From: a virus
Taxonomy: Duplodnaviria; Heunggongvirae; Uroviricota; Caudoviricetes
Strand: one strand, 5' to 3'
IMG/VR virus record: IMGVR_UViG_3300009788_000100
DNA length: 64,000 bases
A program made the position numbers and the translations under genes. The notes below the pieces were generated by a model that made no database searches, had not been told where the DNA came from, and was given only the letters and a program-made list of their open reading frames with translations. This document shows, piece by piece, positions 2,828 to 64,000 of this stretch (position 1 is its first letter; each line of letters starts with the position of its first letter).

Positions 2828-2830
2828 GTT

Positions 2831-4069: not shown

Positions 4070-4076
4070 TTCGCTC

Positions 4077-5909: not shown

Positions 5910-5910
5910 A

Positions 5911-22770: not shown

Positions 22771-23268
22771 TTATAGTAACAGGGTATCAAGCTCATTCCA
22801 GAAGCTGGGAAGTCTTCCCGTCTTAAGAAACCAGCGAATGAAAGGGTATTCTTTCTTGTACATTTCGAACTGAGGGGAGCCGTTGGCTTTCGAGAACCTT
22901 GAGTTGGCAATACGATCTGCCAGCTTGACAGCCAATGCCAGGGTGCCTCCCTCCCGAACCTTCAACATTGTCTTAACCGTTTTTTCCTTCCGATTCCTAC
23001 CGTTTTCATTGGTAACAGCGAATACTAACTCGCCGGTGTCATCCCCGAAAAGGTCGTAGACGTGGCGCAGCTTAGCAGAGGTGTCTTCGACTACGTCGTG
23101 CAGCCAGCCGGCAGCAAACACTCTGTCTGGAAAGTAGAAATCCCCGCTGTGCTGTTGTAACACCTGAACTACGTCTGTTAGGTGTTTCTCATAGGGATGC
23201 TCCCCGTATAACTGTCCGCCGTGGCTCTCGATGGCGAACTGTCGGGCGTTGTTAATGAGAACCTTCAT
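22771..23268 (-). CDS. HD-domain phosphohydrolase
   Basis: 165 aa. H..H...GWLHDVVEDT HD motif plus downstream D. Confidence 0.65.
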   Translation of the reverse strand: MKVLINNARQFAIESHGGQLYGEHPYEKHLTDVVQVLQQHSGDFYFPDRVFAAGWLHDVVEDTSAKLRHVYDLFGDDTGELVFAVTNENGRNRKEKTVKTMLKVREGGTLALAVKLADRIANSRFSKANGSPQFEMYKKEYPFIRWFLKTGRLPSFWNELDTLLL

Positions 23269-23820: not shown

Positions 23821-24215
23821 GTGGACCTGCTCGGAATCGAACCGAGGTCCGAACTACTTCAGTGTTGGGTGCTTTACTACGGCTATCTGTACCCAGCTTT
23901 GTGGACTTCATACCCTGTCCACGGTTTTTCTCCTATCTGGGAACCGACTTGAGGGTCTAATGGTTTAACGTCTTCTAGTAGGACGTACAGCGGTCCTGCT
24001 TGGGTAATAAGGTGAGGAGAGCCTACCCCACGCCGACTCTAGGCCGCGGCGAGCGCACGGGGCGCCGCCGTCCGATTGGTGTTAGCCACCATCGAAGCGA
24101 ACTTAACAAACGAGTTGCCAGTTATTGATCGGATAACCAAAGTTAAGGCATTTAGGTTCCAGTATGCCAGCCGAACTTGCCACCGAAAATAGCCCGTCGA
24201 AGCCAGTTCAGGCCC
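23821..24215 (-). ncRNA. ssrA: tmRNA (ssrA-like transfer-messenger RNA)
   Basis: Minus-strand RNA begins GGGCCUGAACUGGCUUCGACGGG (E. coli tmRNA: GGGGCUGAUUCUGGAUUCGACGGG). It ends with T-arm CUCGG-UUCGAUU-CCGAG and CAGGUCC-A, which pairs with the 5' GGGCCUG (one G-U). About 395 nt in a 400-nt ORF-free gap. No canonical ...ALAA tag frame identified by eye. Confidence 0.6.
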
Positions 24216-25288: not shown

Positions 25289-25936
25289 CTAGAGCTCATG
25301 CCCACAAACCCCATTAAGAAAATTCCAAATAATTGAGGTACCTGCTTGGCTGGAAGCATCTTTACCTAGATGTTCCGGGTGGAACTGTACTGCGTACAAA
25401 CCACGCTCTTCATCTTCCATAGCAGCGGCCTCTGTAGCTTCAGTAGTACCCGTAACGGAAAACCCCTCAGGAACAGTGGTTACTTTACAGACATGCGCCA
25501 TCCACACAGGAGCTCCCGCATCGGTAAAGTCTCGGAATAGTTCCGAGGGCTCCTCCGTGAAGTCCAGGTGGATTAGTTCTTTCTCCCGTTCGTGCATCCG
25601 TTTGACCTCGCCGCCAAAGTCCTTCGCCATTCGTTGCATGCCGTAGCAAATGCCAAGGACGGGGACACCAAGGGTGTAGATAGTTGTGTCCACCGTGGGC
25701 GCTTTGGGAGAATTGACGTATTCAGGAGAGCCGGAGATGAAAAGTGCCAGAGGGTTTAGTGCCGTTAGAACTTCGGCTGGCGTGTCGCTGGGCAGCAAAA
25801 TGGGGCGCAGCTTGAAGTTAATTAAAGTATCGTATAAGCTCTTGGTAAAAGAGGAACCACAGTAAAGAATAGGAACATTACGCATTGAATTTACTTTCCT
25901 CGCTGCCGTATCCGTGCAAGCTGCCGTGGCTTTCAA
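25289..25936 (-). CDS. class-I glutamine amidotransferase (triad GATase1)
   Basis: 215 aa. VPVLGICYGMQRMA (G-x-C-x-G nucleophile elbow) and VQFHPEHL (His-Glu of the triad). Confidence 0.65.
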   Translation of the reverse strand: MKATAACTDTAARKVNSMRNVPILYCGSSFTKSLYDTLINFKLRPILLPSDTPAEVLTALNPLALFISGSPEYVNSPKAPTVDTTIYTLGVPVLGICYGMQRMAKDFGGEVKRMHEREKELIHLDFTEEPSELFRDFTDAGAPVWMAHVCKVTTVPEGFSVTGTTEATEAAAMEDEERGLYAVQFHPEHLGKDASSQAGTSIIWNFLNGVCGHEL

Positions 25937-27684: not shown

Positions 27685-28128
27685 TTACTCTGGCTTACTA
27701 CGCCGTACACCGGGTTTTCTCGACTGTCGCTTTTTGCTTTTGGGTTTCTGACGGCTCTTTTTTTCTTCGACAACTTTCTCTAGCGGTTCTTCTTGCCGTC
27801 CCGAAATCTCTTTTCCCTCGCCATTTTTATTTTCCCTCGTTGCCTTTAACCTCTCTAGGCGACCACGCGTGAAAGCAGCGTTGAAGTAACGCTGGAAAGC
27901 AACGGGGTACTCCTTGCGTCGGCGCTCAATTTTAGCTTCAATGCCCTCTGTTCTTTTAACAACCATCATGTCCCCTACAAAGATGGCCGTGTCTCTTAAA
28001 TCTTTAATAAAAGCGTAGGCTTCTGCCTGCTGCCGAAGTAGCTTTTTCTCACGCTCTGTTAGCTTCATCGGCATCTCGTTCCGTGTAAGGTATGATATAG
28101 TGTTCCACGAGTTGCTGCACATAGTCAA
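27685..28128 (-). CDS. hypothetical basic protein
   Basis: 147-aa ORF, K/R/E-rich tail. Overlaps the 27396..27773 ORF, so one boundary is wrong. Confidence 0.25.
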   Translation of the reverse strand: MTMCSNSWNTISYLTRNEMPMKLTEREKKLLRQQAEAYAFIKDLRDTAIFVGDMMVVKRTEGIEAKIERRRKEYPVAFQRYFNAAFTRGRLERLKATRENKNGEGKEISGRQEEPLEKVVEEKKSRQKPKSKKRQSRKPGVRRSKPE

Positions 28129-28783
28129 CTGCGGGTGCGCTTTCCGGCATCCACTCCGGGTGAAACTGCATACCCAGAGCTTTAATTTTCGGGTACCACA
28201 CTACGTCCGGTTCCGTCTTCAACTGCGCGGAAGCTGCGTCGATATCAATAACAGATTCCGCATCAAACGCGTAGTGCATTGAATAAGGCTTCGGACTCCA
28301 CGCCAGTACCTCAAAGTCACCGGTTGGTAGATCCCAAGGATATTGCATTTGGTGGTGATCCCCCTTCACCATTAATTCCTGAATGTAGCCCTCAGGGAAG
28401 CGTGCTGTTACTGGGTGGGTGCACATCCCATGATTGGTGACATCTTGAAGTAGCTTTCCCCCCGCCATCACACAGAGGAGCTGTGCTCCTCGGCAAATAC
28501 CTACCATCGGTACTCCGTGCGCTTGGGCGGTGTCAAAGACATTCATTTCCTCTACATCACGCGCAAAGTTAGAGAAAGTTGCGGGGTGCTTAGCCCGGTC
28601 ATAAATTTCCGGGGATACGTCGGCTCCCCCGGTAAAAACAACCATCGCGACTTGTTCTGGGGTTCGCTGAAGAATCTCCGGATCATCGGTATACTCGAAC
28701 CCGAAGGTGTGGAAGGGCCGAGAATGATTTCGAGGGGAGTCGTTAACTACTAATAGTTTTTTCAAAAGTGACATTACGGCCAT
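28049..28783 (-). CDS. class-I glutamine amidotransferase-like protein
   Basis: 244 aa. HGVPMVGICRGAQLLCVMAGG (G-x-C-x-G) and LGMQFHPEWM (H-P-E). Confidence 0.6.
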   Translation of the reverse strand: MAVMSLLKKLLVVNDSPRNHSRPFHTFGFEYTDDPEILQRTPEQVAMVVFTGGADVSPEIYDRAKHPATFSNFARDVEEMNVFDTAQAHGVPMVGICRGAQLLCVMAGGKLLQDVTNHGMCTHPVTARFPEGYIQELMVKGDHHQMQYPWDLPTGDFEVLAWSPKPYSMHYAFDAESVIDIDAASAQLKTEPDVVWYPKIKALGMQFHPEWMPESAPAVDYVQQLVEHYIIPYTERDADEANRA

Positions 28784-30343: not shown

Positions 30344-31267
30344 TTAAAATTCCCAAGCTTGAGAAAGCTCGGCGGCAGGCATCGTATCCACTTGCTCTAT
30401 TCTATTGTGAAGCTCTTCATCCAACAACGGGTGGAGGTGTTCTTCGTAGAGTTTTCGAGCCGTCGCGATGTCAGACTCGTTGATGACCCGCTGCAGCTCT
30501 TCCGCGCCACCGAGATCCTCGATGAGCTCGACGAAAAGCTCTTCGTCAAGAGCAACTGCAAGCGCTTTGGCACTCAAGTCATAGATGAGGTGGGTGTGTT
30601 CTGGCGTAGCCAGCCACCACGAGCTGCAGGCCCGGTATTCAACCCCGTATGTTTTGGGGCGGTGCGCGCCCGCCTTTCCATAGAGGCCGCGCCGCGCCGC
30701 CGCCGTCACATCCTTGTCTAAGAAGACACTCATAAGACCAACAAAGATATCAAGAGCCTTAACGACCCTCACTTTGCCCAAACCACTTTCGTCAAGCAAC
30801 AGCTCCGCTAACTCTTTGTCTTCTTTGTGCGCGCCGATATGAAGGTGCCCGCCGGCGGACCGGAAGGGCTTGTGCGCCGCGTCAGCGGGAACGTGGTTGA
30901 TCGCTAGTGCGTAAGCATCGAAGTCGGGGTCACAGCCGAAGGCGCTCGCTTCGTAACCTTGGAGCTGGCTGTTCGGAAAGTTAGCCGAAGCTTGTAACAG
31001 CAGTTCGGTGTTCTTTGCTGCCGCTAAAGAAGAAATTTCCTTTAGCGCTGTTCCTATAATAGCGGTAAACTTTTCAGGAGTATCCGCCGGAATGGTGTTA
31101 AACTCGATGAGTACGTTGTCATGCAAAACAGCACCACCAGTGGCCAACGGCCGGGGCGCCATCTTACCTTCCGCAATCACGGGGATTGCGGAGCGTAACT
31201 CCTTAGTCTCAGGGTCCCTTAAGAAAAGTTCGGGGTCTGAGCCTAACAAAAAGCGAACCGTCTCCAT
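30344..31267 (-). CDS. carboxylate-amine ligase (YbdK/GCS2-like 'amidoligase'), paralog 3
   Basis: 307 aa. LLGSDPELFLRDPE at the N-terminus and SAGGHLHIGAHKED. Same motif pair as 2831 and 9418. Confidence 0.55.
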   Translation of the reverse strand: METVRFLLGSDPELFLRDPETKELRSAIPVIAEGKMAPRPLATGGAVLHDNVLIEFNTIPADTPEKFTAIIGTALKEISSLAAAKNTELLLQASANFPNSQLQGYEASAFGCDPDFDAYALAINHVPADAAHKPFRSAGGHLHIGAHKEDKELAELLLDESGLGKVRVVKALDIFVGLMSVFLDKDVTAAARRGLYGKAGAHRPKTYGVEYRACSSWWLATPEHTHLIYDLSAKALAVALDEELFVELIEDLGGAEELQRVINESDIATARKLYEEHLHPLLDEELHNRIEQVDTMPAAELSQAWEF

Positions 31268-33307: not shown

Positions 33308-34069
33308 TTATGCTAAAACCTGCTTGAGTTCTTTGGGAGAAAGCTCGTTGTTACTGAATTCGAAGAGGGCGTGCCCCCTGGCAGCGTTAGAAAAGTGAAC
33401 TTTATTTAAACCGCCCCCTCCGTTTGTCATCTGTCCAAAAGCTTCATGAATGTGACCAAAACAGTGTAGACGTACGTTAGTTTTTCCTGTATACATTCTA
33501 CGTTGCAGATAGCCGTGCAAAGCGGTAGAGCCACAAAGATCGCCGCCGTAAGCCCCATCTAGAATTCCGTAGGGTGGGGCGTGTGTAACTAAGATATCAA
33601 TGTTAACTGCTAACTTTTGCGTCCGCTCAACCCAGGAAGTAAAGTCTAACTCATCCGCCCAGGTGTTATCGTTGCCGATAGCGTTGATGCCGCGGACGCC
33701 ACCGAAGTGCACACCGTTGATTGTATAAAGTGTGGCTTCGTCCCCCATCTCGTAGGTGTCACCTCCATCAAATAAGCGCGCAAGCGAGACAAAATCATGG
33801 TTGCCCCGACAGATAACTACGGGGGCTTTTGGGTTTCCGAGGTATTGGCGACCGTCAATTTTCCGCAGCGCCTTGGCCTGTAGAAAAATCTCCCTATTCC
33901 TATCAATGCCCCCGAAGTTTTTAGTAGGGTAGTTATCTAACATGTCCCCTGTACAGATATAGACATCCGCTTCGGGGAGCAGGTACCACTCGCCGTGGAA
34001 GTCACTGAAGTGGCAAATTAGCATATTAATTTCCGAGGAAAGACAATACCGCTGCACCGATGGCAGCAA
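33308..34069 (-). CDS. calcineurin-like metallophosphoesterase
   Basis: 253 aa. YICTGDMLD (GD), VICRGNHDF (GNHD/E), CFGHIHEAF (GHxH). Confidence 0.65.
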   Translation of the reverse strand: MLPSVQRYCLSSEINMLICHFSDFHGEWYLLPEADVYICTGDMLDNYPTKNFGGIDRNREIFLQAKALRKIDGRQYLGNPKAPVVICRGNHDFVSLARLFDGGDTYEMGDEATLYTINGVHFGGVRGINAIGNDNTWADELDFTSWVERTQKLAVNIDILVTHAPPYGILDGAYGGDLCGSTALHGYLQRRMYTGKTNVRLHCFGHIHEAFGQMTNGGGGLNKVHFSNAARGHALFEFSNNELSPKELKQVLA

Positions 34070-41162: not shown

Positions 41163-41235
41163 TGCAGCGAGGGGGAGTCGAACCCCCACGATCTTTCAAT
41201 CAACGGATTTTCTTACCAACTACAGTTTTCACTGC
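41163..41235 (-). tRNA. tRNA-like gene, 73 nt, good acceptor and T-arm but no recognisable D/anticodon cloverleaf
   Basis: Minus strand. Acceptor GCAGUGA/UCGCUGC (one G-U), T-arm GGGGG-UUCGACU-CCCCC, discriminator A. The internal 39 nt (contains UAGUUGGUAA D-loop-like string) do not fold into standard arms. Confidence 0.4.
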
Positions 41236-41827: not shown

Positions 41828-42385
41828 GCTTGGCTCGGTATTGCCATTACTAAAGGGTTCACCGAGTTTGACATCTTCTACTCCCGGGGTTTCCCCCGGG
41901 GCACTCAAATTTTACTTAAGTCCGTCGTGGCTACCATTACACCACCGCTGCATAGTCCCAGTCAATTGACTCTGCCAATTGGTCTACCGGGGGTTTATTT
42001 ATCTTTTTGTGCACGCAGCCAAAGCACTTGGTGTTTAGGTTGACCTACACCTACACATTTTACTTTAGTGGAAGCTATATGAGGTTCAAGAGCATTCCCC
42101 TTCGAGAATCCAACTTTTCGTCCACACCAAGGACACTTTATCTTCTTTTTATTCGCGGGCACAAGTTACTATAAAGAATAGGGATTGCATGCTTTGCAAG
42201 GGCAATAGAGATGAAGAAACTTGGGCCAGTCTTTACGAGGAATGCCTTCTTCCTTCAACCTTTGGTAGTAAGCTTGGATAGCGCAGTTCTTTTTAGGGTT
42301 TTCGTCTGCCCAGTGTTCCTTTTTATGTACCCACTGCTTTACTTTATTCTTTTCATCCTTTGGCATGTTTTTCTCTCTTGTTGGA

Positions 42386-42455
42386 TCGGGTGCAGGGAAT
42401 CGAACCCCAGTCCTCAGGACCAAAACCTGATGTCTTACCTCTAGACGACACCCGA
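42386..42455 (-). tRNA. tRNA-Gln (anticodon UUG)
   Basis: Minus strand. Acceptor UCGGGUG/CACCCGA, D-arm GUCU-AGAGGUA-AGAC, anticodon arm UCAGG-UUUUGGU-CCUGA (U33, anticodon UUG, G37), T-arm UGGGG-UUCGAUU-CCCUG. CCA not encoded. Confidence 0.8.
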
Positions 42456-45129: not shown

Positions 45130-45528
45130 TTAACTTCCAAAGCTAACTGTTCCCGTGGAGGCATATGTTCCCATAACGTAGCTGTTCGGGGCCGAAAGAG
45201 GAACTTCTCTTTTTTTCTTTGCCGAAAGGAGATTTTTTTTCTCCTTTTTTCCATGCAGCTTTAATCGTCGGCGCTTTAACTTATTAAGTCGGTGAGCCAA
45301 CGTTTTTTCAACGTTATACCACCGCTGGTAGTGGTACTTCTGATACATACGTTCGCGCACGCTAGCGGCAATGCTTGAACCCACTATCGTCGGTGAGTTG
45401 TGCAGCGCTACACTTTCGTAACGCAATCGGTGGTGACTGGCGGTGTCGCGGGCATTTTTTAACAGTTCCACCAGCTTCACTATCTTTTTATCGATAGCAG
45501 CGACCTTCACTTTCTTAGCCGACGCCAT
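45130..45528 (-). CDS. hypothetical basic protein
   Basis: 132-aa ORF, K/R-rich. Confidence 0.3.
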   Translation of the reverse strand: MASAKKVKVAAIDKKIVKLVELLKNARDTASHHRLRYESVALHNSPTIVGSSIAASVRERMYQKYHYQRWYNVEKTLAHRLNKLKRRRLKLHGKKEKKNLLSAKKKREVPLSAPNSYVMGTYASTGTVSFGS

Positions 45529-46090
45529 GCTTCTTCCTCCATTTACGCACCTTCTTGGTAACCATCTTCTTTTTCATCGGGCTAAACCCTTCCAACATTG
45601 TCTGGCCCAGAAGATGCTCAAACTCGTGTTGTATAACCCGCGCTAAGAAGTCCTTTGCCGTGATAAAAAATTTTCCCCCCGCGACATTATATGCTTCGAT
45701 AACTACGTCACGCTGGCGTTTTACTTGCAAAAAAATATCGGGGAAAGAAAGGCACCCTTCTAGCCCGGTTATTGGTTCGCCTGGGTGCAGCATGACAATT
45801 TGCGGGTTAATAAGAACCCAGGCCCCCTTGAGCCCACTTTCTTCTCCTCCCCACTTTATTAAATCACCACCATCTTCTAGTTCTTGATTAATCACGAAGA
45901 TGCTAGCAGAGCTACCTATTTGTGGCGCGGCTAAACCAACACCTCCCCAGATAAACATCGAATCAACAAGGTTCGTTGCTAGTGCTAAAGTTTCCTCGTT
46001 GAACTTACTAATAGTATTAGTTTCGCTCTTCAGGTGCGAACTTGGCCAGTAAACTAATGGCTTAGCAGTTGGCATATTTATCTGTTGCAC
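45515..46090 (-). CDS. def: peptide deformylase
   Basis: 191 aa with all three PDF motifs: GVGLAAPQIG, LEGCLSFP, VIQHEFEHLLG. Confidence 0.8.
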   Translation of the reverse strand: MQQINMPTAKPLVYWPSSHLKSETNTISKFNEETLALATNLVDSMFIWGGVGLAAPQIGSSASIFVINQELEDGGDLIKWGGEESGLKGAWVLINPQIVMLHPGEPITGLEGCLSFPDIFLQVKRQRDVVIEAYNVAGGKFFITAKDFLARVIQHEFEHLLGQTMLEGFSPMKKKMVTKKVRKWRKKHGVG

Positions 46091-47999: not shown

Positions 48000-48914
48000 T
48001 CATGGCCTTACTATCCTATTGATGAAGTCAACCTCTGTCACTGGCATGGAGGCACCGGCTGCTTCAGTATGCCCGTCACCCCCGAAACACCGCGCAATAG
48101 CTGAAACGTCTTCAGTTTCTGGAGTAGAGCGCAACGACCAGGTTACTTTGCCCTTACTGATACGGTACGCACCGACAAAGGGAAATTCTCCCAGTTTGCT
48201 CAACATTTCACAAACAAGACTGCCTAAAATACTGGGGCAGTTGGCAGCTAATATTTTGTGGCCGCAAAAACTCCACTCTTCTGCTCCATCTAGAATAGAG
48301 TTGGCGATAGCCTCTTGCTTACTTAGCATCGCTGCACCAAGTTCTCGAATACGTATACCCCCTTTAAGCTCTTCCAGGTCATGCGCTAGGCGGTTCCAGG
48401 CCTCGAAGTCAAAGGGAAGGCTTTTAATGTAAGCACAGATCTCATGGGCGCTGCCTAACTTCCACGTCCAAAGGTCTTCGTCTTCGACGAAATGAAGTAA
48501 CGTCGGAGGTAATATTGGCCCGAAATGTGTATGCGGTATTTTACCCTTTGTAGCGAAGCAAGCCTTCCACATCAAGATAGCACCAGAATGCTCGCCACTG
48601 TAATAGCAGTAATCTAAGCCCTCTAGCTTCTTTGCTGCAGACTCATGGTGGTCAATGACGGTGAGAGAGGCTGCCGCTGCGTGCAGTTTTTCAGTTAACT
48701 CGCGTTCAAAGGAGAAATCACCAACGACAACGTGCTTGTCTCTTACTTTCTCCAGCCAATAGGCCTCGTCTTCTCTGTTTTCAGCGTAAATGCCCGGAAG
48801 GAACTCAACGGAGTCGCCAAAGCGCTTCCAGCAGGCCCAGGCGGCTCCGAATCCATCGGAGCAAGGGCTGTGGTAGATACAAACATCTACCTTCGTAATC
48901 ACTGGTAGTTGCAT
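48000..48914 (-). CDS. DHH-family phosphoesterase (NrnA/RecJ-like)
   Basis: 304 aa. CIYHSPCSDGFGAAWA (motifs I/II) and LTVIDHHES (DHH). Confidence 0.6.
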   Translation of the reverse strand: MQLPVITKVDVCIYHSPCSDGFGAAWACWKRFGDSVEFLPGIYAENREDEAYWLEKVRDKHVVVGDFSFERELTEKLHAAAASLTVIDHHESAAKKLEGLDYCYYSGEHSGAILMWKACFATKGKIPHTHFGPILPPTLLHFVEDEDLWTWKLGSAHEICAYIKSLPFDFEAWNRLAHDLEELKGGIRIRELGAAMLSKQEAIANSILDGAEEWSFCGHKILAANCPSILGSLVCEMLSKLGEFPFVGAYRISKGKVTWSLRSTPETEDVSAIARCFGGDGHTEAAGASMPVTEVDFINRIVRP

Positions 48915-53171: not shown

Positions 53172-53837
53172 TTACTGAATTTGCTTAGAGTGCTCATTGA
53201 AATCCTCTTCGTCGATAATCTTGAAGCCTCGTTTTTTGTATTTTTCAATTCTATGCATTAACGAAGCTAAACACACTGTGTCGGTACAGCGTAGTGTTCT
53301 CGTTTTCATGTCGTTTAGCGCGGTTCTGTTACTAACCGTTTCACCGTTTAAAACAGCTATTTGACAGATTGAGAGGTCAAATCGAGACAACATAAAAGCA
53401 ATTTTACTTTCTAAGTTGCCTGCATAAATATCGGTATGGGCTTTAATGACCTGAACTTTACGATAGACGTCAGCGGGGTGTTCAAAATTATCGCAGTGGG
53501 GAAAATCATCGACTCGCTTATAGCCCAAGTTCACTAGCGTATCTTGAGCTGTAAGGATGCATGTTTTTGATAGCGGAAAGATGTCTACATCTCCGTAAGC
53601 TACAGCTAAGTATGCTCCTAGGACAGCTCCCCCGGCGATTGGGACTTCAGTGCCCTTGAAAGCCGAGATGAGTTCTTCTAACTGCGGTATTTTGACAGCT
53701 GGTTTCCAAGGCTGGGCACACCAAGTATAATCAGTGGGGAAAAGGAAGTCCTCTGTTTTACTGTAGCGTTTGTGGGAGGCTTTCTTCTCTTTTGCAACCT
53801 GGTTAAAGAGGTAAGAAAATGTTTTGCTGTAGCTCAC
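53172..53837 (-). CDS. Pol-beta-superfamily nucleotidyltransferase (CCA-adding/poly(A) polymerase head-like)
   Basis: 221 aa. PIAGGAVLGAYLAVAYGDVDIFP parallels the class-II CCA enzyme head YLVGGAVRDLLLGRPPKDIDLV (GG...DxD). Shorter than full CCA enzymes. Confidence 0.45.
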   Translation of the reverse strand: MSYSKTFSYLFNQVAKEKKASHKRYSKTEDFLFPTDYTWCAQPWKPAVKIPQLEELISAFKGTEVPIAGGAVLGAYLAVAYGDVDIFPLSKTCILTAQDTLVNLGYKRVDDFPHCDNFEHPADVYRKVQVIKAHTDIYAGNLESKIAFMLSRFDLSICQIAVLNGETVSNRTALNDMKTRTLRCTDTVCLASLMHRIEKYKKRGFKIIDEEDFNEHSKQIQ

Positions 53838-54925: not shown

Positions 54926-55643
54926 GGTGCTTTCTCTGGGTATACAGCAAGTACCCTAGATAGCTGATTGTACTTCTCACCAAGTGCGGTCTGCTCCGCT
55001 TTAAGGTCAGTGTTTTGTTGTTCTATGTCCGCTCGAATAAAGTCCAAAGCTTTAATCTCCGCATCCTCGAAACAAAGATAATCTTCTGGAAGGTTAAGGT
55101 CATTAACCAGTGCTTTAAAAAAACCACCGTTCACCCAGTTCGGTGCAAAGTTGGGTACATAGATGAGGCGAATCGTTTCCCCGGCTACCGTGGCCCGGTA
55201 AGATACTACCCCCGCAGCATCCTCCGAGCGAACATAAGCTATACCGAAGCTACTTTTCCATTCAGTCATAATTTATACCTGCTGTGGGGGTAAGAGAGCT
55301 TCCCATTTGCCGGGAGAATAAAGGTCAACCTTGGTATCAATGGATTTACTTGTGTAGTAACCAGAGAGTCCCAGCACTTCATTGTTCATATAGAAGATAC
55401 GAACCTGATGACTGCCATTCCCCCGAGATTGAACATTGACCATGAATTCAATTGCTAGGTCATCTTGCTCAAGTTCAAGTACCATGTTGAGGTAACTTTG
55501 TACGGCGTTACTGTGTTTACCCCGCACCTCTCCCCTAAGGTCTACATAATGTTGTAGCCTATCGGCGAGTTCGTCGGGGTTATAGGGAAACTCAATTGTT
55601 TTCTTCCCGAAGGGAAATTGTACGCTCATAGTCTAAATTTTTC

Positions 55644-56051
55644 TTACGGAGTGTTCCTCAGATAACACTCTGAGAATATGTAGTTGTTGCTCCGTTCAAC
55701 ATTACAGGAGTAGAAGCTGCTCCAGCAATACTCCGGGTCCCCGGGAGTTGGTCCCTGAAAGCAGTAGACAAAGTAATCGTATTGGCACTCTCCGTAGTAG
55801 TACCAACCCCCTTCTCCTTGTCTGTCGTGCCAGAACTGTAGATAGTCTGTTTTCGCTTCTTCGCAGGTACCCCGGCTAGTAACGCATTGGTTGTTCCCCA
55901 ACTTAAAGTAGCTATCAAAGGGACAATAGTCCCCTGAACACTCAGTCCACCGGGCTAGGCACCAAAAACTATCAGGTTGTTGAGGGGCTACTGGGTGAAG
56001 TTGACAAGCGAAAAGGGAGAGTAATAGGAGCAGCAACCACTTCACTGCCAT
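55644..56051 (-). CDS. small secreted Cys-rich protein
   Basis: 135 aa, signal peptide MAVKWLLLLLLSLFACQ, 10+ cysteines. Confidence 0.35.
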   Translation of the reverse strand: MAVKWLLLLLLSLFACQLHPVAPQQPDSFWCLARWTECSGDYCPFDSYFKLGNNQCVTSRGTCEEAKTDYLQFWHDRQGEGGWYYYGECQYDYFVYCFQGPTPGDPEYCWSSFYSCNVERSNNYIFSECYLRNTP

Positions 56052-56326
56052 TCCTCCTCGGTGCAGTCAACTGTTACGCGAGTTTTTTCTACCTGACAGC
56101 CTTGCTCTGTTTGAATGTAAACATTGGTGCGTTTACACTCGACCCAGCCGAGCTGTTGACACTCGTGCTCGGCCATCACCTCTAGGCTGTCGTCTAGGCC
56201 TGCGTAAATGTCGTTGACCGTGGCGTTCGCGCGACAAACACCATTATCAACAGTGACATCGACGTGAGTCTTCGGGCCACCGCAAGCCCCCATTACGAAC
56301 AATAACGCGAGTAGTAAGTATTTCAT
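56042..56326 (-). CDS. small lipoprotein
   Basis: 94 aa, MKYLLLALLFVMGACGG lipobox, 6 cysteines. Confidence 0.35.
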   Translation of the reverse strand: MKYLLLALLFVMGACGGPKTHVDVTVDNGVCRANATVNDIYAGLDDSLEVMAEHECQQLGWVECKRTNVYIQTEQGCQVEKTRVTVDCTEEEWQ

Positions 56327-56730
56327 TTCCTATCTATTTCTCCCACAAAGTCATGTCTTTGATTGCTTTGTCAAATAGTTGGTGTGTGATACAACCGGAG
56401 AGCCGCTCAATCGCTTTTCGTAGAGCAGCTCCCTGATCCAGCGCCAGCTCCACGCCTTCAGGACCCTTAACGGTTCCTTTATAGAGTTGGCCGTTAAGGC
56501 GGAAAGCATAATGCCAAGTGGAGGCGTCAAACCCGGTGCCTCTACTGGAAGTTGTGAGACTGACAGTTTCTAGGGTGTTACCCTGGACAAGAAAGCCGCC
56601 GAGCACTGAATCAAGTGCTTCTTTCTCCATGGCTCGGAGAATTTTAACACTCTCATCTGTCGGGGCCCTATGCTCGACAACCTCTGTTTTGTTGTAGCTG
56701 TGGGTGGTTCCCCCACCAATATTAATTCTG

Positions 56731-57519
56731 TCAAACACTTGGTAGCTCCTTCGGTGTTTCCTCTACAGTATCTTTAACCACCCAGCGAGTTGATTTGGGC
56801 CCAACAATTGCCTCTACCCCTAAATCGGCTCTTATACTGGGGTTGTTTTTCAGGGTGCGCTCAAAGTGAGCTCTGCCGTGGGAGCCCCAACCGGTTTTCC
56901 ATCCCTCTGCACTGCTGTCTCCAAAGAGCTCTTTAAGCGAACGCTTCTCCACTAGCCGGTGCAGTAGGGACCTTGGCAACCGCCGCCCACGGCGAATAGT
57001 TCTGTAGTAGCGGCGCAGTTCACCTAGGTACATTGAATACATCGGGCGGCTGTAGCGCCAAGCGTGAGCTGCCTCAACAACCCAGCGAGTAGCGAAGCCC
57101 CCTACTGCCGACATGGCGGCTAAGCAGCGGATAGTGTGGGGTTTAAGTCCAAGCTGTTCTTCAAGCCGGTGTACCTGGTAGCGCATATTACTAACACCAA
57201 GAATAAGCCCTTCTTTAGTGGGGGCAGTGATCGCTAAGTAAACCTTAGTTTCCAGTTGAACGTTTTTTTTGTACAATAGGGCGGCGTAAGAGGCGACCAC
57301 CTCGCGGCAGAGATGTCCTGTGTCAGAAACGCTCGTGGAGTAGTAGAATCCCTTGAAGGGGAGAATGCTAGCGCCGGAACCTATTTTATGATTATCTACC
57401 TTATCCTTGGTATCCGTCTCGTACCAGCTAAGCTCTTTGGTCATCTGTTTACCCGGCGGCCTTATTGTTATAGTCAATGCAGACATCGAGGCAGTTCTTG
57501 CGGCAAATTTCGTCTGCAA
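56731..57519 (-). CDS. hypothetical protein downstream of the radical SAM gene
   Basis: 262-aa ORF. Start overlaps the radical SAM gene's 3' end. Confidence 0.3.
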   Translation of the reverse strand: MQTKFAARTASMSALTITIRPPGKQMTKELSWYETDTKDKVDNHKIGSGASILPFKGFYYSTSVSDTGHLCREVVASYAALLYKKNVQLETKVYLAITAPTKEGLILGVSNMRYQVHRLEEQLGLKPHTIRCLAAMSAVGGFATRWVVEAAHAWRYSRPMYSMYLGELRRYYRTIRRGRRLPRSLLHRLVEKRSLKELFGDSSAEGWKTGWGSHGRAHFERTLKNNPSIRADLGVEAIVGPKSTRWVVKDTVEETPKELPSV

Positions 57520-58405
57520 AGGTGTTGTGTTCTTCCGCCCACTTTATTCTGTCGGTTCGCATTGAAGCACCTACAGTGCCGATAGAATCGCCATGTTCTC
57601 GCAGGTAGATAACACAGGGATAGTGTTTGTCGCCGTGAACAACGCTATCGTCTTTAAGCAGCGGGCAGCGGTGGTTATCCGTCTCTTTGATGCCCCGCAC
57701 GTTGCGACCATTAAGCAGGTTATTAACTCTGTACTTGAGTATTGGGTGGGCGCCCAAGACTTCCTGCCGCACAAGACGGAGAAACTTGAGATCCTCCTCA
57801 TTGTATTGAGCGGCGGTAATCAAGCGAATGTCAGCTACACCCAGCTCGTGGGCTGTTTCGATGATCTCCAAGGTACGCCCGATGTTACCCTCAGTGAGAA
57901 CAACGCCAGCAGTAACGTAAGTGATCTTCGACAGTTCCCTGATGTTGTTAGTAACTCGTTTCCAACTACCGGGTAGATCAGCAATAGCATCGCCGTCGCT
58001 AGCACAGCAAGCATCGAGGGAGATTGAAAAGTCGTTGACCCCAAGATCAACCAGAGTGAGGTAGTGTTTGAGGGGAAAGCTACCGTTGGTGGAGATGGCG
58101 ATACGCTCGACACCTCGCCCTCTAGCAAAGGCAACGAGGGCGAACAAGTACTTGCTTGTAAGCGGCTCGCCGCCGGAAAAGCGTACGTTGCGAAGCCCGT
58201 CGCTGCACCAGCTGTCTAGTGCCTTCATAGCTTGACTTACAGTGGTATCATCGCCACAACCCTCTTTGGGCCCTCGGCAGTAGTCACACTTGAAGTTACA
58301 CTTGTAAGTGAGAATCATCTCACAGCGCTGCATCGGGGAGATAGCGCTGGAGGTTTTAGCTCGGTGGTCGGTGAGAGTGTAAAAGCCAATGTCTTCAAGT
58401 TTCAC
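57449..58405 (-). CDS. radical SAM enzyme (MoaA / SPASM-twitch-like)
   Basis: 318 aa. ILTYKCNFKCDYC (CxxxCxxC), VRFSGGEPL (glycine-rich SAM motif), AISTNGSF, and C-terminal Cys clusters (CPLL...C...CRKNCLDVC) suggesting an auxiliary Fe-S cluster. Confidence 0.75.
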   Translation of the reverse strand: MKLEDIGFYTLTDHRAKTSSAISPMQRCEMILTYKCNFKCDYCRGPKEGCGDDTTVSQAMKALDSWCSDGLRNVRFSGGEPLTSKYLFALVAFARGRGVERIAISTNGSFPLKHYLTLVDLGVNDFSISLDACCASDGDAIADLPGSWKRVTNNIRELSKITYVTAGVVLTEGNIGRTLEIIETAHELGVADIRLITAAQYNEEDLKFLRLVRQEVLGAHPILKYRVNNLLNGRNVRGIKETDNHRCPLLKDDSVVHGDKHYPCVIYLREHGDSIGTVGASMRTDRIKWAEEHNTFADEICRKNCLDVCIDYNNKAAG

Positions 58406-58602
58406 TTTATCTCCGTGGGGTGTAAAGGAAGAACTTGTATTACTAGGTACTTATACCCCTCTTTATCTTTATCCCGCGTGATTGTACAAGCACGCTCTCC
58501 GAGTCTGTTAGGAAGGAAGACAACAACCTCTGCGGCGTCAGGTAAGCCTTTGATTATTTTTTTGAGGTCTTTTACAGTATTCCCCCCAGATTGAGTATTC
58601 AT
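58402..58602 (-). CDS. small ORF translationally coupled upstream of the radical SAM gene (candidate substrate peptide or RRE-like partner)
   Basis: 66 aa. Stop overlaps the radical SAM start (58402-58405). Confidence 0.3.
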   Translation of the reverse strand: MNTQSGGNTVKDLKKIIKGLPDAAEVVVFLPNRLGERACTITRDKDKEGYKYLVIQVLPLHPTEIK

Positions 58603-59319
58603 TCCCTGTTCCCTTTAGTAACGATCGTCGTCTTCACCAGGCAACAAACAGCGGTTATTATCCGCAGCCTCGAGCCTATGCAGGGCTCTAGAAGACTGTG
58701 TTTCCCAATACTCTCTGTTCTCCCTTGCTAATTTCTCGTCAAGATTTTCTTTTCGCTTGGAACAGCGCTTACACGGGCAACTTGGGCGCGCGCAGTTTTG
58801 ACAGCGAAACCCCCCAAGGGGGTGTTCCCAAATAGCACGTTTGTTACAAAGGTCGCACTCTTTGGGCCTAATCCTTTTCCACGATGACATTCAGTTACTT
58901 CCTTGCACAGGTACTATATCTCCGAAGTTGACGCCGCAGCGACGACAGGTAAGGTTCTGGGGAGAAATAATATCGTGCCCTTTCTCGTGGCATTCCGTCC
59001 ACTTGCCGGTATCTTTGAGCTCTTGTATGTGCTTCTTAATCCACTCAGGGGTGTCCTTGCTCATTTATCTTTCTTCGGTAGTCGCGGCCAGTGGTCCTCT
59101 TTTTCACTAAGGATGAGTGCCACAAGCACACCCACGAAGGTTCCGATTACCAGCATCGCCCAAGTGTAGTTGAAGGGGCTATAGCCACTCCAATCGATTC
59201 GCTTGACAGCTTTGTACTTATCCGCGTGGTGAATCGCTGTAGTGGCAATAAGCAATAGCAACCAAAGTGACGCCATTGCTAGTGCCAGGGAAAAAAAGTT
59301 TCTGTTTTGTTTCTGCACT

Positions 59320-60084
59320 TTATCCCTCTTCAACGTCTACAAGTTGTTGTATGTAGCCCCTGTCTTTACTAAATCTGGGAATGTCATTATCCTCTCCCCA
59401 GCTGTGGCGCGCAGTTGATACTACTTCGCCGTTTTGTACCACTTTTTGGAGAGAGGCGCCTCGTGTGATACAGAGTCCCCGCTTCTGTACAGTGGGGCAG
59501 GCATTCCAGTTGATCTCTCTCTGCAGCATCAACATATCCTGCATCGCCCCAAAGTCCTTTCCATGCAACTCCTTGTGGCTGAAGTGGGCCTGGGCCAGAG
59601 AAGCGACGGAGTTACGAGACGCATCCTGTTGCCGCCAAATAAAGTAATTGACTACCTCCTCCTTTGGTAAATTAAAAGCGCGGCAATCAAAGAGCCCCAT
59701 GATGCCACGCTCAGGGAAGACACGCAGAAAGAGGCTGTTGAAGCTGGCCGTAGCGATGCTGGCCGCCACTGAGCACATCTTCTGGACGCGGTTACCAAAC
59801 CAGGGCTGTGTTTGTAGGGTCCGGTAGTTTACCAGTAGGAGAGAAATTTCATCCGATTGTGTGTAGGCAATCTTAGCACCATCGATGTTTTCACACAGTG
59901 TCTGTGCAGTTAGTGCCATGCATTCATTGAAACGCCAGTCAATCGGTTTATCCATGCCCCTGGTTAAAGTGTGGAAAGCCTTACCATCGAGGCGGAGGAT
60001 GACCGGCATGCGGGGGACAAGGTAGCTGTCGGGGACCCCCTCATACTTCTTCATGCGGTTGCCGAGACTTGTTCTATCGCTCAT
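59320..60084 (-). CDS. Thg1-like protein (tRNA 3'-5' nucleotidyltransferase; tRNA-His guanylyltransferase family)
   Basis: 254 aa. YEGVPDSYLVPRMPVILRLDGKAFHTLT (compare Thg1 VVVRLDGRNFHRF), KIAYTQSDEISLL (compare AYGQSDEYSFVF), NYFIWRQQD (compare DYLSWRQAD). Confidence 0.75.
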   Translation of the reverse strand: MSDRTSLGNRMKKYEGVPDSYLVPRMPVILRLDGKAFHTLTRGMDKPIDWRFNECMALTAQTLCENIDGAKIAYTQSDEISLLLVNYRTLQTQPWFGNRVQKMCSVAASIATASFNSLFLRVFPERGIMGLFDCRAFNLPKEEVVNYFIWRQQDASRNSVASLAQAHFSHKELHGKDFGAMQDMLMLQREINWNACPTVQKRGLCITRGASLQKVVQNGEVVSTARHSWGEDNDIPRFSKDRGYIQQLVDVEEG

Positions 60085-60909
60085 GTTATGAACTCCACTT
60101 TGGAGGGGTGGAAGAGGCTTAACAGCATGCCATGACCGTCGAGGCGAACAACAATAACAGTGTCTCCCATATCGGTACAGTGGAGGCCAATAAATTTTCC
60201 CTCTTTATCTTCTACTTTTACTCGCCGTGCACCCATGCAACAGGTACAGTCTTCCGAGCACCCCACTGCTCTCTCTTCACAAGACTCTTCTTCGGTGCGG
60301 TCAGGGTGTGTGCACTTGCTGCCTGTATTCTCTTGGTTGGCTTGGTGTAGCCCATCAAAGGTTTCGAGAATACCTGGTAGAGAGCTGTAGTCGGGACGAT
60401 CCATTTTTTCGATGTTAGCGCAGATTATCGCTCGAAATTTTTCGCATGCGCTCATACATTATCCTTGAATTCTAGTCAACGGCTGTTGGTTAACATCGCG
60501 ACACAGCTCTCTATTGTGCCGAGAATAATGAGTAGGATGAGAAAGGTCCACCCCGGGTGTTCTTTTACGAATGCCCAAAAATTATCCATTGTTTTTCTCC
60601 TAGTCTAAAACCAAGCTTCTTTGTAGGGGCTGGCCCCGACAATTTCCTGAACTTCTCCTTCATGCAGCCTAGTATAGCGGGCGTTGCTCCAGCGAAACTC
60701 TTCGCCGGGTTTAGCAGCATCAAAGCGTTCTCTAAAGGTCCCAAGCAAGAAGCCGGTCATTTGACTGTACTCGCCCTGGCAACGAAAAGAACAGTAGGCA
60801 CCCTCCATGGACTCAGTAAAGGCGTTCTCAAGGACAGCGATGATAACTGTTTTTCCGCCTTTAACCTTCCGGTAACCACCGGCTATCTTTTTATCCGTTA
60901 GGTCGATCA

Positions 60910-61383
60910 TTACATTACTAGGATAAAGTAGATGATAGCATAGTGGGTAAAGTGGTGAGCCATTTGGTCAAAGCCGAGGCTCCACCAAAAGTATTTGTTG
61001 CCCCGCCTTTGTTTCTCAGTAGCTGTAGGGTAGTCCTTAGCCGTTAAAGATTTGTGTCTTCCAAGCAACTTAGGCGAAGCCTTTAACCTATCGACAAGGA
61101 AATGAACTGTGTGATCAAAGATGGCCGTTAGAATAGCAAGAGGCCAAGAAGAAAACACCAAAACAATAATGAAGGTAAGGGCGGCATGAACGCTGGCGTG
61201 GGCGTGGAGCGGACCGATGTAGTCGGGAGACGGTTTAAACTTGCCTAGCATGTACCCCGTTTGCAGGGGGTAATCAGCGAGAAAGTGTTTGACCTGAAAA
61301 ATAGCGAGGAGAATAAATACGGTAGTAATTTCCATTACGGCTCTACTCGTCCGCTTTGTTAATAAGCCAGGCGACGCCCCCAC
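60910..61383 (-). CDS. integral membrane protein
   Basis: 157 aa, 4 predicted hydrophobic helices. Confidence 0.35.
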   Translation of the reverse strand: MGASPGLLTKRTSRAVMEITTVFILLAIFQVKHFLADYPLQTGYMLGKFKPSPDYIGPLHAHASVHAALTFIIVLVFSSWPLAILTAIFDHTVHFLVDRLKASPKLLGRHKSLTAKDYPTATEKQRRGNKYFWWSLGFDQMAHHFTHYAIIYFILVM

Positions 61384-61493
61384 CTACCATGAAGAGTCCG
61401 TAAAGCACAGCTACCCCCGCTGCGGCGTCGCCTTTACCGGTGTAGGTAAAGAGGACACCAAGGGTAACAGCAATACCAGTCATAAATGTAAAC

Positions 61494-62726
61494 TTATCCA
61501 TCGTCTTCCTCCGCGTATTCGAGTACTTTTTTATCGGCTACATTCTTGAAAGCATTGAGTAGGTTAGCGTGCTGCTGCCATGCTCCAAACTGAGGCCCAT
61601 TACTAAAAGAAGGGCGCCACTGGTAACGGGTATTAGCCAGTATACTCTGAATAAAAGCTAATTCTGCGGCGCTGTCCAAGAAGTAGGTTTTATCTTCTTC
61701 AGACAGCTCCTCTCTTTTCAGGGAAGTTACTCTGAAAGCAGTAGCAAGGCCGACGGTGAAGGGAACCACATCGTCACAGAACACACGACTATAGGGTTCC
61801 TTACTGTGTCTCAGTGTAATCCTATCTAGTGCGGAAAAGTTACTGGCACCAGAGAGTTTATCCCAGATCTTCTCTGCCGAATTCCTATACGCTTCCAGCT
61901 TGACGGTTTTACCAAGCCAGTCTTCTGTTTCTAGAGTAATGAGGGCCTGCCAGATATCTTCCCGTATCATCACTTGCCCAACCAGTAGATTTTTGTCTGA
62001 TAGGTCGTTACTGAAGTGGTACTTCGATATTTTTGAGTTGGGGCGAATTAGAAGCTCTGCTTGGTTGGCGTAAGAGCCCGTTCCCCTGGTAACCATTGCC
62101 GCGTAACCGGCTGCTTTAGCTAAAGATTCTAGCTTAGCGAGTGGTTCACTCCCGTCACCGAAGGTACCATAACGAACGCGGATACGACCGTAGCCCTGGT
62201 CGTCATCAACCATTACGGTAGTTTTGCTATGGTTACCATCGAAAGGTGTAAACCCCCCTTGTAGGGCCAGTTCTTTGATATTCTCTAAGGTAGGTACCCC
62301 CTCGATAAGCTTTTGTTTGTGCGTGGTGAGCGACGGGATTGCGTTTTTTCCCAGCTCAGGGAAGATGGGGACATCTTGGCTAACATGGACTCTCCCCTCC
62401 CAAATAGCTGCTAGCAGGTGCCCAAAGTCCATCTCTTTGTGAACATCAATGTCGTGGCAGGAATTGTTCCCCCAGCCCCGCTCGATAACGTCAAGTTTAA
62501 GAGCGTCTAGCCAGGTCTGCTGTAGAGCCTCACTTTTAATTTCCTCGACGCTGCCGTAGTCATTGTAAACGGCACGGAGGGGGTAACCGCGAGGGAACCA
62601 GAGGTCATGAATGTAACAGCTAATGCTATCTGAGTAGGGACTCTTCGTGAGTAGAAGGTACCTTACTTCATCCCCACATTCAATCGGCAGCCCAGAGACC
62701 GCACAGGTCATTGCAAAAGATCCCAT
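61494..62726 (-). CDS. hypothetical protein
   Basis: 410-aa ORF, no motif recognised. Confidence 0.4.
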   Translation of the reverse strand: MGSFAMTCAVSGLPIECGDEVRYLLLTKSPYSDSISCYIHDLWFPRGYPLRAVYNDYGSVEEIKSEALQQTWLDALKLDVIERGWGNNSCHDIDVHKEMDFGHLLAAIWEGRVHVSQDVPIFPELGKNAIPSLTTHKQKLIEGVPTLENIKELALQGGFTPFDGNHSKTTVMVDDDQGYGRIRVRYGTFGDGSEPLAKLESLAKAAGYAAMVTRGTGSYANQAELLIRPNSKISKYHFSNDLSDKNLLVGQVMIREDIWQALITLETEDWLGKTVKLEAYRNSAEKIWDKLSGASNFSALDRITLRHSKEPYSRVFCDDVVPFTVGLATAFRVTSLKREELSEEDKTYFLDSAAELAFIQSILANTRYQWRPSFSNGPQFGAWQQHANLLNAFKNVADKKVLEYAEEDDG

Positions 62727-62729
62727 TAT

Positions 62730-63038
62730 TTACCTGTTCTCTCCCCCGGTGTCAATGCACCACGTGTAAATTTGTTTTGCACTTATCTTTTGGTTGCTAT
62801 TACCCTCAATGATGACTAAGTCTCTACAAGTACTGTTAACTGCGATAACACAAATACTGTGCTCGGCACTCCACCCGGGGTGGGCGCATTGCTCTACCTT
62901 CCCACTAATTGCACGGGCGTAATCGTTAGCTGCCGCTCGACGACGGTCCTTAAAATTGGAACAGCCTGTAGAATGGATACCCGCGGAGAGAATTCCCCCT
63001 AAAAGGGTAATGATCGCTAATAGAATTACGCTTTTCAT
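62730..63038 (-). CDS. small lipoprotein
   Basis: 102 aa, MKSVILLAIITLLGGILSAG...STGC. Confidence 0.35.
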   Translation of the reverse strand: MKSVILLAIITLLGGILSAGIHSTGCSNFKDRRRAAANDYARAISGKVEQCAHPGWSAEHSICVIAVNSTCRDLVIIEGNSNQKISAKQIYTWCIDTGGENR

Positions 63039-63061
63039 TAGTGGTTATCTCCCATCTCTTC

Positions 63062-63256
63062 CTAGGCTTCATAGCCGGAAGGCCGTTCTCCGATTGCTGC
63101 GTACATTTTCAACTCATACGTACGGAGAGGCATCGTCTCTCGACAACTAGGAAACTTGGAGCAGCCATAAAAAACTCTAGTCCCCTTTAGCTCTTGGTGG
63201 ACACGTTTCCGCATGTGCCCTGGACATTTGGGGCAGGATATTTTAAGTTGATCCAT
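63062..63256 (-). CDS. C4 zinc-ribbon protein (topoisomerase-type zinc finger)
   Basis: 64 aa. CPKCPGHM...FYGCSKFPSCRE matches the Topo-I C-terminal zf-C4 pattern CPxC...GCSxYPxC. Confidence 0.35.
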   Translation of the reverse strand: MDQLKISCPKCPGHMRKRVHQELKGTRVFYGCSKFPSCRETMPLRTYELKMYAAIGERPSGYEA

Positions 63257-63847
63257 TATTCCTCCCGGTGTATCTTTGAGCAGTGCTTCTTCTTACACGG
63301 GCAGTAACCGTGCTCAGCGAGGGCCCAGCTGTGGGTTGAACCGCACCAACAGACAGGGTAAGCTGAAGAGATTGCGTGGCGTGTGTGCTTCTTCCACTCG
63401 TGAGCGCGCTCTTTTTCTAAGCCCCGGAGCAGAGTATGAAGGTTGGCAATCTCCTCACTCAGAGCCGTAATCCTCTTGCGACTACTGCACGTCGGCTTTG
63501 CTGGCAACATCTAATTTCAGTCCTGTCTCTTATTTGGTAAAGCTTTTGCTCTAGGCAATTTAGGTTTGTTTAACCTAAACAATTTAGCTAGTAGTGGCCA
63601 CCGAATGTGGAAAGGAAGGCTCCAGCTACTACGATTATCTTCAGCTTGTTTCAAGGAGATCCAGTTATCGCATACCGGGCACTTAACTGCCTTTTTAATT
63701 ACTTCTTTACCATTTTTCGTAACTGTTTGCTCACTAAAATCTTCTCGTAAAACTGTATAAACTGCCCCGCATTCGGATACTTGAGTATAAACAGAGTCTG
63801 GGTTTAGATACGTAGGTAAACTCTTGACAATAAGCATGTGGCCCCTA

Positions 63848-64000
63848 TTTAAGTTTGATCTTCAGCCCCATCTTCTGCTTCATGTGCAGCAGAGCTTCAA
63901 CGTTGCCTCGACAGTCATCAACCGGGTGATGCGTGTGCTTGGTCTTACGCAAATACTTAAATGATTGAAAAGTATCGCTACGCATCCCTTTGAAGAGGGA
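63848..64000 (-). CDS. C-terminal end of a protein whose start lies beyond the window
   Basis: Open minus-strand frame from the window edge to the stop at 63848 (...HPVDDCRGNVEALLHMKQKMGLKIKLK*). Confidence 0.3.

Follow-up and report, generated by a model that had tools for sequence, protein, structure and literature searches.

The Thg1-like gene and its product

The stretch of viral DNA analysed here (IMG/VR record IMGVR_UViG_3300009788_000100; 64,000 nucleotides, hereafter the window) harbours close to its end a gene whose product belongs to the Thg1/TLP family, which comprises the tRNA-His guanylyltransferases (Thg1) and the Thg1-like proteins (TLPs). The gene and the open reading frame (ORF) located directly upstream of it are the following.

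59320..60084, minus strand: TLP gene (Thg1-like protein), an ATG-to-stop ORF of 254 aa
60081..60455, minus strand: Cys-rich ORF of 124 aa with no match in Pfam, PHROG or NCBIfam

The start codon of the TLP gene overlaps the stop codon of the 124-aa ORF (ATGA), and the gene is translationally coupled to this upstream ORF. A scan for promoters and terminators around the TLP gene returned counts equal to those expected from shuffled sequence.

An earlier note on this DNA, made without database searches, had recognized the family by three motifs, all of which are indeed present: RLDGKAFH (residues 31-38), YTQSDE (residues 74-79) and WRQQD (residues 150-154). The profile search that had been proposed as a check bore out the family, with one weak point. 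The Pfam Thg1 domain (PF04446) was matched at E=1.4e-31 and 109.5 bits over profile positions 2-130 of 130, well above the curated cut-off of 29.2 bits, but the Thg1C domain (PF14413) reached 18.1 bits (E=0.0032), which is below its cut-off of 26.3 bits. The C-terminal half of the protein nonetheless aligns residue by residue with the TLP of Bacillus thuringiensis (BtTLP; Protein Data Bank (PDB) entry 4KGK), and its hairpin was modelled confidently. The match to BtTLP runs end to end (8e-69, residues 6-252), followed by weaker PDB matches to the archaeal TLP 5AXK (2e-16) and to eukaryotic Thg1 proteins (1e-10 to 7e-12). PHROG 4717 ('tRNA-His guanylyltransferase') was matched over the full length of the profile at 2.1e-92, while none of the NCBIfam models matched the protein. 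With PF04446, PHROG 4717, 4KGK and the predicted fold (see below) all in agreement, the ORF, as judged from sequence and model, encodes a genuine Thg1/TLP-family enzyme.

The functional residues of BtTLP, taken from the published work on this enzyme (PMC3701042, PMC6471195), were mapped onto the phage protein via the BtTLP alignment, and their conservation was read from an alignment of 20 sequences (A1) composed of relatives that share 50-61% identity with the query.

Metal-binding and third carboxylates: D30, D75 and E76 in BtTLP; D33, D78 and E79 in the query
Salt-bridge glutamate: E12 in BtTLP; E15 in the query
Triphosphate-binding arginines: R28 and R131 in BtTLP; R31 and R135 in the query
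Activation lysine and serine: K43 and S74 in BtTLP; K46 and S77 in the query

In addition, K102 of the query is the equivalent of ScK96. Of these positions, K46 is the consensus in A1, while all the others (D33, D78, E79, E15, R31, R135, S77 and K102) do not vary there. The three carboxylates of BtTLP (D30/D75/E76) correspond to the active-site carboxylates D29/D76/E77 of hTHG1 (PMC3701042). The earlier note had reckoned with an inactive homologue that has lost its catalytic carboxylates; this objection fails because the functional residues are conserved, with D33, D78 and E79 all kept and invariant in A1. The protein is thus apparently active, and catalytic competence can be predicted from its residues.

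The AlphaFold2 model of the protein, built on 20 homologues, has a predicted local distance difference test (pLDDT) score of 88.1 and a predicted template modelling (pTM) score of 0.85. The top matches of this model in a Foldseek search against PDB are 4kgm/4kgk (E ~1e-27, template modelling (TM) score 0.78-0.89), followed by MaTLP and eukaryotic Thg1, and 32 of the 32 significant matches are Thg1/TLP structures. The model also contains a long beta-hairpin (strands 204-217 and 220-232), the equivalent of which is used by MaTLP to hold the T-arm of tRNA (PMC6471195).

Like BtTLP (4KGK/4KGM), with which it shares the length class, the fold and ~45-50% identity over an end-to-end alignment, the phage protein has the same nucleotide-binding and activation residues, identical catalytic carboxylates and a TLP-type sequence at the region corresponding to HINNLYN of Thg1. 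It differs in being encoded by a phage, whereas BtTLP is encoded on a bacterial chromosome, in a hairpin region that is ~7 residues longer, and in having S162 for M158, a residue whose change to alanine (M158A) had no effect on BtTLP (PMC3701042). The eukaryotic Thg1 proteins (human 3OTB, Candida albicans 3WBZ, yeast 5XOX) have the palm-domain fold, the two-metal site and the three carboxylates in common with the query, but the identity amounts to ~20% only, and the query contains neither HINNLYN nor the Asn of ScN161. Where Candida Thg1 reads WRQVDCHINNL, the query reads WRQQDASRNSV, so that ASRNSV replaces CHINNL (BtTLP has ASKNSI), and S162 occupies the position of BtTLP M158 and of ScN161, the Thg1-specific Asn that is absent from TLPs. 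These two replacements mark the protein, by its signature residues, as one of the TLP type and not of the eukaryotic, G-1-adding Thg1 type. Since HINNLYN and a ScN161-type Asn are missing, non-templated, anticodon-dependent addition of G-1 would not be expected. Every TLP from bacteria or archaea assayed to date has shown a preference for repairing 5'-truncated tRNAs, whichever the tRNA species (PMC6471195).

The view that the TLP gene is borne by a phage was confirmed. The 116 non-overlapping ORFs chosen, all on the minus strand, cover 90% of the window, and the gene content is phage-like and non-structural, including phage PHROG families, a helicase, two genes of single-stranded DNA-binding proteins and an RNA polymerase beta-like gene. 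In the nearest relatives of the TLP, terminase and portal genes adjoin the TLP gene. The carrier is a large phage, uncultured and probably of the jumbo class. A megablast search of positions 55000-64000 against GenBank phages gave no DNA match; the identical TLP protein, however, was found on three independent metagenomic assemblies, and its closest protein relatives (~60% identical) are metagenomic. One locus (L004; ENA ERZ27251120, contig k141_1086698, 68 kb) equals the window at 99.99% identity over the shared 14.7 kb and runs past the window end; like a further contig of 74 kb, it is a genome fragment. At the opposite side, the protein encoded at 912-1436, which was tried for extension past the window start, was not on record.

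The RNA polymerase-like gene of the window (17540-20713, minus strand) encodes a protein of 1057 aa whose sole Pfam match is RNA polymerase Rpb2 domain 6 (3.3e-6). In all probability this protein is a strongly diverged counterpart of the beta subunit of multisubunit RNA polymerases, as known from jumbo phages.

RNA genes and repair-type enzymes of the phage

Several RNA genes and genes of RNA- or nucleotide-handling enzymes were identified in the window or, by means of L004, just beyond its end; coordinates past position 64,000 are window equivalents.

23821..24215, minus strand: transfer-messenger RNA (tmRNA), tag peptide ...AAPRALAAA (ARAGORN; Rfam RF00023, 65.3 bits, E=3e-23)
41163..41235, minus strand: tRNA-like element (RF00005, 21.7 bits, below the threshold of 29), 1.15 kb from tRNA-Gln
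42382..42455, minus strand: tRNA-Gln, anticodon UUG (ARAGORN; Rfam, 57.5 bits)
53172..53837, minus strand: Pol-beta-type nucleotidyltransferase of 221 aa with a CCA-enzyme head-like motif
63845..64000, minus strand: RNase T/DEDD-type exonuclease, C-terminal part, cut by the window end (Pfam RNase_T, 2e-11)
~65476-66339, minus strand, beyond the window end: Rnl2-like RNA ligase (PF09414, 5.9e-12; NCBIfam Rnl2, 2.8e-12, below cut-off)
~67220-68386, minus strand, beyond the window end: RtcB (Pfam, 2e-117)
~69174-70373, minus strand, beyond the window end: AAA ATPase (gene map of L004)

The tmRNA was found by both ARAGORN and Rfam, as had been claimed. Meanwhile the tRNA cluster with imperfect acceptor stems that the earlier note had described is not there: the window holds a single tRNA gene, that of tRNA-Gln, and a single sub-threshold element, and the acceptor stems of both are fully paired. 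The tRNA search comprised ARAGORN at default settings, Rfam at the gathering threshold and Rfam at E<=10 over positions 21000-64000 and three sub-regions; neither the default nor the permissive searches revealed any tRNA in the window besides tRNA-Gln, the sub-threshold element being the only addition. Relaxed ARAGORN settings produced 10 calls at 85% and 97 calls at 75% of the program's thresholds, which were discarded as noise, lying scattered on both strands and mostly inside ORFs.

The acceptor stem of tRNA-Gln (UCGGGUG/CACCCGA) consists of 7/7 Watson-Crick pairs, with U73 as discriminator and an encoded CCA end. In the case of the tRNA-like element, the acceptor stem (GCAGUGA/UCGCUGC) is likewise 7/7 paired, with one G-U pair, and the T-arm (GGGGG-UUCGACU-CCCCC) is canonical. 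The element has no recognisable D arm, anticodon arm or encoded CCA, and its fold is no better than that of shuffled sequence (z=-1.5). It could represent a decayed tRNA or a minihelix of acceptor and T arms. A tRNA 5'-editing of the mitochondrial type, which acts on mismatches in the first three acceptor pairs, was considered and rejected because the acceptor stems of both tRNA-like genes are fully paired.

Two further genes associated with translation or with the stringent response were noticed. A protein of the HD_4 (RelA/SpoT-type HD) family is encoded at 22771-23268 (minus strand), ~550 bp downstream of the tmRNA in the direction of transcription, and a peptide deformylase at 45515-46090 (minus strand; 7.9e-35). 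In the related contig L090, the peptide deformylase gene is located two genes from the TLP gene.

The nucleotidyltransferase encoded at 53172-53837 had been described as CCA-head-like, and this description holds in part. The protein displays AGGAV-x12-DVD (motif A) followed by FDLSICQ, which resembles motif B (cf. (R)RDxTxN), but it has no Pfam match, no PDB match as a single sequence and no relatives by word-indexed search, and PHROG 1614 ('nucleotidyltransferase') was matched weakly (6e-4). An exhaustive HMMER search identified 32 relatives among 1.84 billion representative proteins. In an alignment of 26 sequences of this family (A3), residues G69, D83, D85 and D154 are invariant, and the profile derived from it aligns at E=5.6e-5 with 1ou5, the human CCA-adding enzyme, in the head domain, over a region spanning motif A (IAGGAV...DID) as well as a motif B of the RRDLT kind. 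PF01743, however, was touched by only 1 of the 26 family members, at 0.0069, and the protein, with 221 aa as against roughly 390-450 aa in the matched solved CCA enzymes, is without neck, body and tail, the domains by which CCA enzymes bind tRNA and choose C and A. Membership in RlaP (PF10127) was also considered and found no support, neither the protein nor its family giving a match, and the single-sequence AlphaFold2 model was unusable (pLDDT 34). By its motifs and its length, the protein is a head-like domain only and not a demonstrable CCA-adding enzyme. In the viral locus L031, a homologue is encoded less than 10 kb from the TLP gene.

Shortly beyond the window end, the strand of the TLP gene bears the genes of RNase T, the Rnl2-like ligase and RtcB, at upstream distances of 3.8-8.3 kb, and these neighbours provide the best support for a plausible RNA-repair theme. 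The proposal of a phage-borne module for tRNA maintenance and 5'-end repair therefore stands as a theme, strengthened by RtcB, the Rnl2-like ligase and RNase T, but not as a tightly linked unit: the repair-type parts lie 3.8-35 kb apart among unrelated ORFs, and the neighbours of the TLP gene differ between relatives. The repair genes form a loose neighbourhood, not an operon.

Other enzymes of the window include a DHH phosphoesterase (48000-48914, minus strand; PHROG 4771, 2.7e-68) and a calcineurin-like metallophosphatase (33308-34069, minus strand), either of which could process the ends of nucleic acids; the HD protein at 22771-23268 is a third phosphoesterase. Four small ORFs further downstream than the TLP gene, the window encodes a radical SAM protein (57449-58405, minus strand; PF04055, 2.7e-17) whose best NCBIfam likeness is to the MoaA/SPASM-type maturases, all far below the cut-offs.

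Thg1-like proteins in other phages

The statement that TLP genes are rarely noted in phages proved to be wrong. TLP homologues were detected by tblastn in 164 of 50,697 GenBank phage records, and the majority of these homologues had already been given the name tRNA-His guanylyltransferase. The carriers include Bacillus phages (46 records), Prevotella Lak megaphages, Caulobacter and Brevundimonas phages, mycobacteriophages and many jumbo phages. At least 590 TLP stretches were confirmed in IMG/VR viral contigs, at least 577 matches were obtained in a collection of species-representative genomes, and the phage proteins have a PHROG family of their own. The TLP gene was flagged as unusual in phage Bc431v3 as early as 2013 (PMC3601020), and phages of Bacillus megaterium later gave occasion for a similar remark (PMC6292376). 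Iyer et al. 2021 (Viruses 13:63, section 3.4.9, PMC7824862) placed the Thg1 of jumbo phages in a tRNA-repair, counter-defence repertoire, together with RtcB, Rnl1/Rnl2, RlaP and CCA-adding enzymes. Both the phage TLPs and the idea of repair or counter-defence are already on record. The papers on Panoptes/mCpol were set aside, as Thg1 appears there only as a fold relative and the work is not relevant to phage TLPs.

The protein studied here resembles the phage proteins of PHROG 4717 (Bc431v3 gp143, QCM8, Goe8; 201phi2-1, CBB, BcepSauron, Lak) in its full-length profile match (2e-92), and its identity to the proteins of Bacillus phages is 49-51%. As in the present case, the carriers of this family are large phages equipped, in addition, with genes for tRNAs and for RNA repair (PMC3601020, PMC7824862). 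The partners are different, however: RtcB, an Rnl2-like ligase, a tmRNA and an orphan mini-nucleotidyltransferase are found here, whereas other phages pair the TLP gene with a full CCA-adding enzyme, RlaP or polynucleotide kinase (Pnkp). Several neighbourhoods agree with the repair theme: in Vibrio phage 1.170.O the TLP gene adjoins a COG0617 gene, in Mycobacterium phage Pound it lies two genes from a polynucleotide kinase gene and in an Erwinia jumbo phage 3 kb from a nucleotidyltransferase gene; an RlaP gene lies 6 kb from P0043.

The neighbourhoods of 80 IMG/VR TLP loci were surveyed over 10 kb on either side, descriptively only and without a control set. Genes of the CCA type or of another nucleotidyltransferase type were present near the TLP gene in 15 of the 80 loci, and 13 of these 15 contained a second such gene (L016, L026, L038-L040, L060, L061, L071, L073, L075, L077, L081 and L085). 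Both genes are on the same strand as the TLP gene and in most of the 13 loci they are adjacent; one resembles the COG0617 CCA enzyme, the other the 'putative nucleotidyltransferase' of an Erwinia phage. This looks like a recurring three-enzyme arrangement of a TLP and two nucleotidyltransferases. RtcB occurs near the TLP gene in only 2 of the 80 viral loci. Genes for tRNA were located near the TLP gene in 19 loci (19/80), with not a single tRNA-His among the 72 tRNAs. Three loci (L031, L037 and L063), all of them large viral contigs, carry, within 10 kb of the TLP gene, tRNAs with a CUA anticodon, which ARAGORN reports as 'tRNA-Pyl' and which resemble amber suppressors.

Proposed repair of tRNA 5' ends and the alternatives

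In our judgement, with a probability of roughly 60%, the gene encodes a catalytically competent TLP of the bacterial type with which a large phage repairs 5'-truncated tRNAs and so sustains translation. By homology with BtTLP and MaTLP, the protein would bind a tRNA whose acceptor stem lacks at least one nucleotide of the 5' strand, the long C-terminal beta-hairpin gripping the T-arm. The 5'-monophosphate of the truncated tRNA would then be activated with ATP or GTP, and nucleoside triphosphates would be added one at a time in the 3'-5' direction, with the intact 3' acceptor strand serving as the Watson-Crick template, until position +1 is restored. The TLP may be regarded as one tool among the genes that keep translation running during an attack on RNA. 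The companion set would consist of RtcB and the Rnl2-like ligase, acting on cleaved tRNAs, the RNase T-type exonuclease, the CCA-head-like nucleotidyltransferase, the tmRNA, the peptide deformylase and tRNA-Gln, and it would keep the tRNA pool usable in the presence of nucleases of the host or of a competitor. Family, active site, fold, phage context and the presence of the RNA ligases are shown by the data, whereas 5'-truncated tRNA as the substrate, the timing of such repair and a counter-defence purpose are inferred.

A number of points weigh against this reading. We know of no in vivo role established even for bacterial TLPs, and the literature searched yielded no report in which a phage TLP had been assayed. 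A defence nuclease trimming the 5' ends of tRNAs was not identified at this locus, and the window-wide Pfam inventory contains no polynucleotide kinase, an enzyme required should the damaged ends bear 5'-OH. Approximately 16 unrelated small ORFs (~16) separate the TLP gene from the ligases. The neighbours of the TLP gene, namely the Cys-rich ORF, the radical SAM gene and DUF3307, have no known link to RNA repair, nor are these three found beside the TLP gene in the 80 other viral loci. Since the survey of those loci had no control set, an enrichment of repair genes near TLP genes is not demonstrated. The bacterial relatives of the TLP are likewise of little help: among the matches listed they are at most 51% identical and come from Clostridia, Paenibacillus, Bacteroidales and archaeal metagenome-assembled genomes, and with best matches so distant and scattered an inference of the host from them is uninformative.

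The first alternative, which we consider unlikely, is that the protein maintains G-1 on tRNA-His by templated addition opposite C73 and thereby preserves recognition by the histidyl-tRNA synthetase (HisRS). The need for it would arise if host or phage tRNA-His lacked G-1, either through perturbed RNase P processing or because a phage tRNA-His does not encode it. Addition of G-1 is the activity that gave the Thg1 family its name, nearly all phage annotations carry the name of tRNA-His guanylyltransferase, and bacterial and archaeal TLPs do add G-1 opposite C73 in vitro, BtTLP even rescuing a yeast thg1 deletion (PMC6471195). The same enzymes, however, favour truncated tRNAs over full-length tRNA-His and act independently of the GUG anticodon (PMC6471195), and bacteria normally encode G-1 genomically. 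Moreover, neither the 64 kb of the window nor the adjoining 10 kb past its end contain a tRNA-His gene, just as none was encountered among the 72 tRNA genes of the surveyed loci. It is this lack of a linked tRNA-His, together with the preference of TLPs for truncated tRNAs, that weakens the G-1 explanation.

Somewhat less probable still is an action of the TLP on other RNAs, such as the tRNA-like domain of the tmRNA, minihelices of the kind seen at 41163-41235, or phage transcripts; in a variant of this explanation, the activation step would leave App- or Gpp-capped 5' ends. The recognition of RNA by TLPs is broad, and the phage carries both a tmRNA and an element that has acceptor and T arms only. 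There is no direct evidence for such a role, however, and the element itself is sub-threshold in Rfam and folds no better than expected by chance, whereas the conserved beta-hairpin and the closeness to BtTLP point to substrates shaped like tRNA. Finally, the variable neighbourhood of TLP genes between phages and their sporadic distribution (164/50,697 records) would suit a passenger or decaying gene with no part in infection, but this is highly improbable, chiefly because of the strict residue conservation: the ORF is full-length with every functional residue retained, it is coupled in translation to the ORF upstream, its product recurs unchanged on three independent assemblies, and the family has been kept across hundreds of phage lineages.

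To return to the repair of 5'-truncated tRNAs, such a function would be comparable to T4-type repair by Pnkp and Rnl1 and to the repertoire of Iyer et al. 2021, in which phage enzymes make good the damage that host nucleases do to tRNAs; the phage studied here has RtcB and a ligase of the Rnl2 family. It would differ from T4-type repair in that the TLP would mend the 5' acceptor end instead of the anticodon loop, that no Pnkp was detected and that the genes are dispersed rather than arranged in an operon. A more specific version, in which the TLP would be a dedicated counter-defence against a nuclease, of the host or of a competitor, trimming the 5' acceptor strand and would form a two-ended repair pair with the 53172-53837 protein, appears doubtful to us. 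If true, it would give a prokaryotic-type TLP its first physiological role. Given that bacterial TLPs have no known in vivo function and that no assay of a phage TLP was found, phages may be the setting in which templated repair of tRNA 5' ends has a clear selective purpose. The present locus contributes a further case, with the active site preserved and in the company of RtcB, an Rnl2-like ligase and a tmRNA, but opens no new question.

Apart from the genes discussed above, the window encodes on its minus strand a set of enzymes for peptide or amide bonds (1838-10515, 25289-25936, 28049-28783 and 30344-31267). Its members are three COOH-NH2 ligases of the phiEco32 type, class I and class II glutamine amidotransferases, a RimK-like ATP-grasp protein and a GGACT gamma-glutamyl cyclotransferase, and the set resembles the phage amidoligase/peptide-tagging systems of Iyer and Aravind.

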